From: an uncultured Gammaproteobacteria bacterium
GTDB taxonomy: Bacteria; Pseudomonadota; Gammaproteobacteria; CAZDOC01
Length of the DNA: 64,000 nt
Direction: 5' to 3'
Assembly: GCA_964506945.1 (NCBI GenBank)
Contig: CAZDOC010000009.1
Location: 3,048 to 67,047, forward strand
In this document: positions 12,015 to 12,031 of the stretch, in pieces
How the letters are laid out: every line of letters starts with the position of its first letter
Position numbering within the stretch: position 1 is the stretch's first letter
Notes under the pieces: model-generated
What the model was told of the DNA's origin: nothing
The model's input: the letters and a program-made list of their open reading frames with translations, nothing else
The model's database searches: none
Translations under genes and position numbers: made by a program

Positions 12015-12031
12015 AGCAATAAGCGGGCCAT
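12015..12031 (-). promoter_or_regulatory. putative sigma-54 (-24/-12) promoter: TGGCCCgcttaTTGCT
   Basis: Minus-strand sequence aTGGCCCgcttaTTGCTg, compared with consensus TGGCACG-N4-TTGCW. The GG-N10-GC spacing is exact and there is one mismatch in the -24 box. It lies about 40 nt upstream of the gene B start. Confidence 0.6.

Follow-up and report, generated by a model that had tools for sequence, protein, structure and literature searches.

The 5' flank of a five-gene operon on the minus strand (11975 to 7628) carries a short element that resembles a sigma-54 (-24/-12) promoter, and an NtrC-type regulator is encoded nearby on the opposite strand. This raises the question whether the element is a genuine promoter and, if so, whether the neighbouring regulator activates it, as the original prediction had proposed. 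Both points were addressed by motif scoring, comparison of related loci and annotation of the surrounding genes in the 64-kb stretch of a metagenome-assembled contig in which the operon lies (referred to as the window).

Sequence and setting of the -24/-12 element

The element aTGGCCCGCTTATTGCT is located on the minus strand at positions 12015 to 12031, and direct reading of the minus strand from 12031 to 12014 gives A-TGGCCCG-CTTA-TTGCT-G. Compared with the consensus TGGCACG-N4-TTGCW, 11 of the 12 specified positions fit. The lone departure is an A to C exchange at -22 in the -24 part, and the TTGCT of the -12 part is perfect. The GG (12029-12028) and GC (12017-12016) dinucleotides correspond to positions -25/-24 and -13/-12 and are separated by exactly 10 nt. 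The element sits in an intergenic stretch of 248 nt (11976-12223) and points at gene 1 of the operon, whose ATG at 11975 follows 40 nt after the 3' end of the element at 12015. This start codon is preceded by the ribosome binding site AAGGCGGA (minus strand, 11986-11979), which ends 3 nt 5' of the ATG and places its AAGG core at a distance of 7 nt. The near-consensus letters, the 10-nt spacing, the single mismatch and the distance of about 40 nt to a start codon with a ribosome binding site had all been described accurately in the original prediction.

The ATG at 11975 is also the start in the public gene call (identical protein, 247 aa). The CAAGG of the ribosome binding site is kept in close relatives and the sequence ACATG in the closest ones. 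A GTG at 12014 was considered as start of gene 1 and dropped in favour of the ATG because of the public gene call and the conservation of ACATG. Given the fixed geometry of sigma-54 promoters, with the C of the GC dinucleotide at -12, transcription is predicted to start at approx. 12004 (12002-12006, minus strand), which would result in a 5'UTR of about 29 nt.

Comparison of the motif score with chance

A loose search of the 64-kb window for TGGCACG-N4-TTGCW with up to two mismatches was uninformative because the matches were not enriched (8 observed vs 11.9 expected). With an approximate position weight matrix (PWM), based on a Barrios-type consensus, the element scored 16.5 bits and was the best match in the 64 kb; this score was equalled in 3 of 30 mononucleotide shuffles of the same 64 kb searched on both strands. 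An empirical PWM derived from 42 intergenic, gene-oriented, ChIP-bound E. coli sigma-54 sites (PMC4591121, Table 1) again placed the element at the top of the window with 17.0 bits when the window background was used. With a uniform background it reached 16.3 bits and ranked 23rd among the 42 bound E. coli sites, at their median. Among random Markov-1 sequences of 64 kb, 20 of 100 contained a match on either strand that equalled the element's score with the empirical matrix.

PWM scoring had been put forward as a check of the promoter, and its outcome was two-sided. The element is the top match of the window and scores like the bound sites of E. coli. However, 10-20% of random sequences equal it, and the score by itself is not beyond chance at the scale of the window. 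The significance of the element derives instead from its position (intergenic, gene-oriented, 40 nt from the start codon) and, above all, from its conservation. The deviating C at -22 is compatible with binding, since the ChIP-bound E. coli site OS20 located 5' of yegT (CTGGCCCGCCTTTTGCG) carries an identical TGGCCCG box (PMC4591121).

The second-best match of the window, CTGGCACGGGAACTGCT (57715-57731, minus strand; 15.3 bits), lies in sense orientation inside an MscS-like gene (55803-58157), a setting reminiscent of the sigma-54 sites reported within E. coli genes (PMC4591121). Two further intergenic matches are TGGAACTTTTCATGCT (58231-58246, plus strand), located 111 nt 5' of a FabG-like SDR gene (58357-59097), and TTGGCATTACTCCTGTA (48653-48669, plus strand), which is flanked by two minus-strand genes and oriented away from both.

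Conservation of the element in related loci

Homologues of gene 1 were gathered and their contigs fetched, which yielded 93 loci, 86 of them with usable upstream sequence. In each locus the best forward-strand match within -220 to +30 of the estimated start was determined, and a cut-off of at least 11 bits was applied. Sites above this cut-off were present in 65 of the 86 loci, compared to 2 of 86 when the opposite strand of the same segments served as control, and the median best score was 13.4 bits on the forward strand versus 4.9 bits on the control strand. Nearly all of the 65 sites end 18-54 nt 5' of the orthologous gene start. In the four closest relatives (64-69% protein identity) the sequence ATGGCCYG-N4-TTGCT is kept while the flanking intergenic DNA has diverged. 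A scan of genome contigs with the single protein yielded no relatives closer than 34-43% identity; these lack promoter and regulator and served as negative controls. For one related protein the source gives the label Chromatiales.

Column by column, conservation was analyzed in 48 non-redundant promoters aligned on the PWM match, a procedure that raises the motif columns by construction: G-25, G-24, G-13 and C-12 are present in all 48 promoters, T-26, C-23 and T-15 in 47, A-22 in 43 and G-20 in 40. The information content of the spacer and of the region from -10 to +2 is near zero. The invariant columns coincide with the contact positions that define sigma-54 promoters. Since accessory elements are found at fixed distances from the anchor of the alignment (see below), the anchor represents a homologous position. 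The window's own clade carries C, not A, at -22.

The reading of the element as a sigma-54 promoter is thus borne out by its occurrence in 65 of 86 loci versus 2 of 86 on the control strand, by invariant sigma-54 columns and by two accessory elements at fixed offsets. On these comparative grounds the element at 12031-12015 is very probably a real sigma-54 promoter.

Three loci (L050, L068 and L078) share a related motif, T(G/A)GCTTAAGGTTTGCC, approx. 20-30 nt 5' of the PF12261 gene start. L068 has a disrupted GG doublet (TAGC) and lacks a bacterial enhancer-binding protein (bEBP). The motif of these loci may be a decayed or a different element.

Accessory elements upstream of the promoter

The first accessory element is an AT-rich, IHF-like box, ATACAACGTATTA, at 12037-12049 (minus strand; -45 to -33), which differs from WATCAANNNNTTR at two positions. 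Of 51 orthologous promoters, 31 contain a box of the form WAWCAA-N4-WTR with its first base at -19 (or -18) relative to T-26. Twenty of these 31 boxes have at most one mismatch to WATCAANNNNTTR, and three of the 20 are perfect. The best conserved positions of the box in the 48-promoter alignment include C-42 (36/48), A-41 (41/48) and T-34 (45/48). From these features we infer that IHF may bind at 12049-12037.

The second element is a candidate upstream activator sequence (UAS), CATACCTTTTTTGCAGTCAAGGTTTGCGCAAG, at 12102-12133 (minus strand), which contains the palindrome TTGCGCAA and belongs to a block conserved in the window's clade. It extends from approx. -120 to -90 relative to the predicted transcription start, and the block of about 30 bp is found at a fixed offset of approx. 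-110, within the distance of about 80-150 bp expected of a UAS. Both TTGCGCAA and TTTTTGCA are stretches within the upstream-block region 12140-12095. The main-clade counterpart, ACAATTTTTGCGCACTGCAA, matches the candidate UAS in position and in its left half, and its core TTTTTGCGCACTGCAA contains the dyad TTGC-N5-GCAA. This left half (CATACaaTTTTTGCA) is kept in the window's clade, while the right half, which only three independent sequences define there, differs and reads N8-TTGCGCA.

The upstream core is located at -83±1 from T-26 in 32 promoters and at -71 in three; a manual count placed the block of the window's clade at -94 to -96. The spacings are discrete (approx. -71, -83 and -94/-96) with steps of about 12 bp, which suggests that activator site and promoter are constrained to a helical phase. 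Within each locus of 9-15 kb the core is nearly unique to the promoter, and it is essentially absent from the kinase-porin intergenic region and from the rest of the loci. We infer that the block at 12133-12102 is the probable binding site of the bEBP. The stretch 12100-12200 that had been proposed earlier for gel shift experiments (EMSA) with the regulator includes this conserved block. An Rfam search of 11850-12350 gave no match, and a search for intergenic repeats revealed only weak GC-rich repeats near the stop codon of the small gene upstream of the promoter.

The neighbouring two-component system as probable regulator

The proposed activator is an NtrC-family response regulator encoded on the plus strand at 15977-17323. 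It consists of a REC domain (PF00072), a Sigma54_activat domain (PF00158, E = 1e-68) with AAA_lid (PF25601) and an HTH_8 domain (PF02954), and it contains the Walker A sequence GETGTGK as well as the GAFTGA motif. It had been described as the only bEBP of the window, and a motif search and tblastn with the AAA+ domain (next match E = 0.21) agree on this point. The adjacent sensor histidine kinase (14220-15980, plus strand) has the domain order dCache_1-HAMP-HisKA-HATPase; its gene is divergent from the operon module and conserved together with it. An RpoN box was not found in the 64-kb window; the presence of rpoN in the genome is implied by the bEBP.

The phosphoacceptor Asp, Walker A and B, GAFTGA, the R-finger and the recognition helix SERxLWYKIKKYGL are conserved across 19 orthologous regulators. 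The helix is near invariant across the variants of the upstream element, the window's clade being represented by one regulator with an HTH domain. The Lys of the receiver KPF motif (approx. residue 104) is an Arg (DYI[IL]RPF) in 19 of 19 orthologues, while Asp and Thr are kept. A Lys to Arg exchange in this motif is unusual for receiver domains.

Downstream of the regulator, a familyless ORF of 225 aa (17313-17990, plus strand) overlaps the regulator stop codon, and the ORF after it (18003-18470, plus strand) encodes an Rsd/AlgQ-type anti-sigma-70 homologue. Neither of them is conserved beside the regulator in the other loci.

Two further genes between regulator and promoter belong to the conserved module. 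A porin-like outer-membrane beta-barrel with a weak BBP2 match is encoded at 12755-13798 (minus strand), and a small secreted protein of 167 aa, which has a signal peptide and no assigned family, at 12224-12727 (minus strand). A tblastn matrix of the loci revealed two forms of the five-gene core. The first form always has the sigma-54 site, together with four companions (the genes for the regulator, the kinase, the porin-like and the small protein) whose positions are fixed. In the second form all four companions are absent and the site is never present. Some loci of the second form carry unrelated two-component genes instead.

Co-occurrence of site and regulator was determined in those 30 loci whose upstream DNA covered 5 kb or more. 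Both were present in 22 loci and both were absent in 8, with no discordant case; the corresponding Fisher p value of 1.7e-7 overstates independence because the loci share ancestry. In all 22 site-bearing loci the GAFTGA regulator is encoded on the opposite strand, in 21 of them 4.26-4.65 kb upstream, and the orthologous regulators are 58-93% identical. In one close relative (L009) the kinase and the porin-like gene are separated by three inserted genes (3033-6147), which code for a 481-aa protein, a ZnuA-like protein and an ABC-3 permease. The insertion places the regulator about 8 kb away from a promoter that is still intact.

These data could also be explained by a genuine sigma-54 promoter that is activated by another bEBP encoded elsewhere in the genome, while the neighbouring pair serves other targets, be they distant or local ones such as the porin-like and the small gene. 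In fact, bEBPs can act on unlinked promoters, and our view of this genome extends over 64 kb. Moreover, the upstream element of the window's clade departs from the main-clade dyad with the recognition helix almost unchanged. However, the strict co-occurrence at a near-constant distance and the restriction of the upstream element to this one promoter within the loci argue against an unlinked activator. A sigma-54 site was also looked for 5' of the porin-like and the small gene and none was found, so that the operon is the only local target. We consider it unlikely that the activator is encoded elsewhere. Assignment of the promoter to the neighbouring regulator, which the original prediction had put forward as a hypothesis, is supported by the sequence comparison, and the regulator encoded at 15977-17323 probably activates the promoter at 12031-12015.

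Possible contribution of upstream transcription

Scans of 11900-14300 detected no sigma-70-like promoter, and terminator scans of 11900-14300 and 7350-7750 gave nothing convincing. RNA folding 3' of the small gene gave no significant structure (z = -1.5). Since no terminator separates the small gene from the promoter, read-through may add to the expression of the operon. Read-through starting 5' of the porin-like and small genes could even be its main source, in which case the sigma-54 site would be of minor importance. [quoted passage not shown] In contrast, an upstream element and an IHF-like box kept at fixed offsets across approx. 50 diverged promoters would be unexpected for non-productive sites, and the sites in these promoters are intergenic, correctly oriented and, in nearly all cases, 18-54 nt away from the start codon. 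A predominant role of read-through is quite improbable on this evidence.

The remaining explanation, that the match is due to chance or that a sigma-70 promoter carries a conserved operator bound by an unrelated protein, would agree with equal matches in 10-20% of random 64-kb sequences and with the lack of enrichment of the loose pattern, but we dismiss it as highly improbable in view of conserved columns that are the sigma-54 contacts (invariant GG and GC 10 nt apart, degenerate spacer), the 65 to 2 excess of the forward over the control strand, the lack of a detectable sigma-70 consensus and the co-occurrence with a GAFTGA protein.

The preferred reading combines both parts: it is likely that a sigma-54 promoter drives the five-gene operon from 11975 to 7628 and is served by the neighbouring kinase and regulator.

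Gene content of the operon

The operon is composed of five minus-strand genes with overlapping or abutting boundaries and is followed by a gap of 109 nt after gene 5. Gene 1 (11232-11975) codes for a GNAT acyltransferase of the T_hemolysin family (PF12261, E = 1.2e-52) with a LuxI/FeeM-like fold. Gene 2 (9760-11235), the start of which overlaps the stop codon of gene 1, encodes an AMP-binding acyl-activating ligase and is found beside gene 1 in nearly all loci. The product of gene 3 (9102-9773, start according to the public gene call) is a heme-oxygenase-like iron redox enzyme (PF14518) that matches 3dde, a TENA/THI-4 protein with heme-oxygenase-like fold. Gene 4 (8416-9105) encodes a TPR protein and is conserved in the loci, and gene 5 (7628-8425), a short-chain dehydrogenase/reductase (SDR), is the last gene of the conserved core.

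An AlphaFold model of the gene 1 product (pLDDT 89.6) displayed a GNAT fold. Its best matches among solved structures were the AHL synthases TofI, LasI, MesI, BjaI, RpaI and EsaI, and then FeeM, an N-acyl amino acid synthase, with E values of 4e-6 to 3e-4, TM-scores of 0.43-0.62 and 9-14% identity. No PDB entry matched gene 1 by sequence, and Pfam assigned PF12261 only, with no match to Autoind_synth. Membership in the LuxI family was ruled out, as the likeness is confined to the fold at 9-14% identity.

Judging by the fold of gene 1 and by its neighbours, which include an acyl-activating ligase, a reductase and an enzyme for oxidative tailoring, an N-acylated small molecule or lipid is a plausible product of the operon. 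A literature search returned nothing that ties PF12261 or thermostable hemolysin to sigma-54 or to gene clusters. A more far-reaching idea is a complete new circuit, built from the promoter, its dCache kinase and NtrC-type regulator and the porin-like and small periplasmic proteins, that leads from an envelope signal to a novel class of N-acylated molecules, either a signal or a lipoamino acid; we regard it as tentative and rather doubtful. If it were true, the PF12261 acyltransferase would be fed by its own acyl-AMP ligase, and the heme-oxygenase-like di-iron enzyme and the SDR would tailor the product. Such a non-LuxI/LuxR acyl-signal system would be widespread in sediment Gammaproteobacteria.

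Model of promoter activation

According to our model, RNA polymerase-sigma-54 would sit on the promoter as a closed complex. The dCache kinase (14220-15980) would sense a periplasmic signal and phosphorylate the regulator (15977-17323), which would then oligomerise on the upstream block at 12133-12102. DNA bending may be helped by the IHF-like box at 12049-12037. Contact of the GAFTGA loops with sigma-54 and ATP hydrolysis would open the complex at the -12 fork, and transcription would start near 12004.

The analysis turns an anonymous motif into a well-founded regulator-target prediction. The module concerned comprises nine genes and recurs in dozens of uncultured bacteria from sediment and groundwater. 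It provides a promoter with three conserved elements and the likely operator of an unnamed NtrC-family regulator. Furthermore, it offers a handle for switching on the operon: a phosphomimetic or constitutive regulator could drive its expression and may reveal the product.

Comparison with known systems

The arrangement resembles AtoS/AtoC and atoDAEB of E. coli, in which a kinase and a REC-AAA+-HTH_8 regulator are encoded beside a sigma-54 operon of catabolic or acyl metabolism. The atoD site of E. coli is among the ChIP-bound sites (OS21; PMC4591121). The best NCBIfam models were AtoC for the regulator (446 bits, cut-off 714) and AtoS for the kinase (201 bits, cut-off 646), and an identification of the pair as AtoSC was rejected because neither score comes near its equivalog cut-off. 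Unlike AtoSC, the pair has proposed targets unrelated to acetoacetate metabolism, its sensor is of the dCache type, and its module includes porin-like and small periplasmic genes. The regulator also remained below the cut-offs of NtrC (411 bits, cut-off 558.6), PrsR (395 bits, cut-off 502.6), ZraR (381 bits, cut-off 760) and LuxO (373 bits, cut-off 800) and is therefore an unnamed member of the NtrC family.

PrsK/PrsR, which includes the sigma-54 regulator of the PEP-CTERM box, goes with genes for an exosortase-associated acyl-CoA ligase and an N-acyl amino acid synthase. It shares with the module in the window the association of an NtrC-type two-component pair with an acyl-activating ligase and a long-chain acyltransferase of the GNAT type. 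Weak matches of this type were obtained with TIGR02915 (395 bits), TIGR03098 and PrsT, none of which reached the cut-offs of 502.6, 592 and 312 bits, respectively. In contrast to the PrsK/PrsR systems, the module in the window has no exosortase or PEP-CTERM genes, and its acyltransferase belongs to PF12261 and not to the exosortase-associated family. Gene 1 shares its fold with FeeM and with RpaI, BjaI and MesI, which are CoA-dependent enzymes of the LuxI type, and, as with CoA-dependent AHL synthases, its partner is an acyl-activating ligase. It differs from LuxI-type synthases in that the module has no LuxR-type receptor and gene 1 no Autoind_synth match.

The promoter itself displays the textbook enhancer-dependent architecture known from glnAp2, Pu, nifH and atoD and in this respect is nothing new in principle. 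In the glnAp2, Pu and nifH promoters, a GG-N10-GC core with a short leader is preceded by an AT-rich IHF bend site and, at a distance of about 100 bp, by activator sites. The promoter in the window has a matching architecture and thereby resembles NtrB/NtrC-glnAp2, XylR-Pu and NifA-nifH. Its upstream element sets it apart from the NtrC and NifA systems: in place of TGCACC-N5-GGTGCA (NtrC) or TGT-N10-ACA (NifA) there is one block of about 30 bp, which in the main clade contains the dyad TTGC-N5-GCAA.
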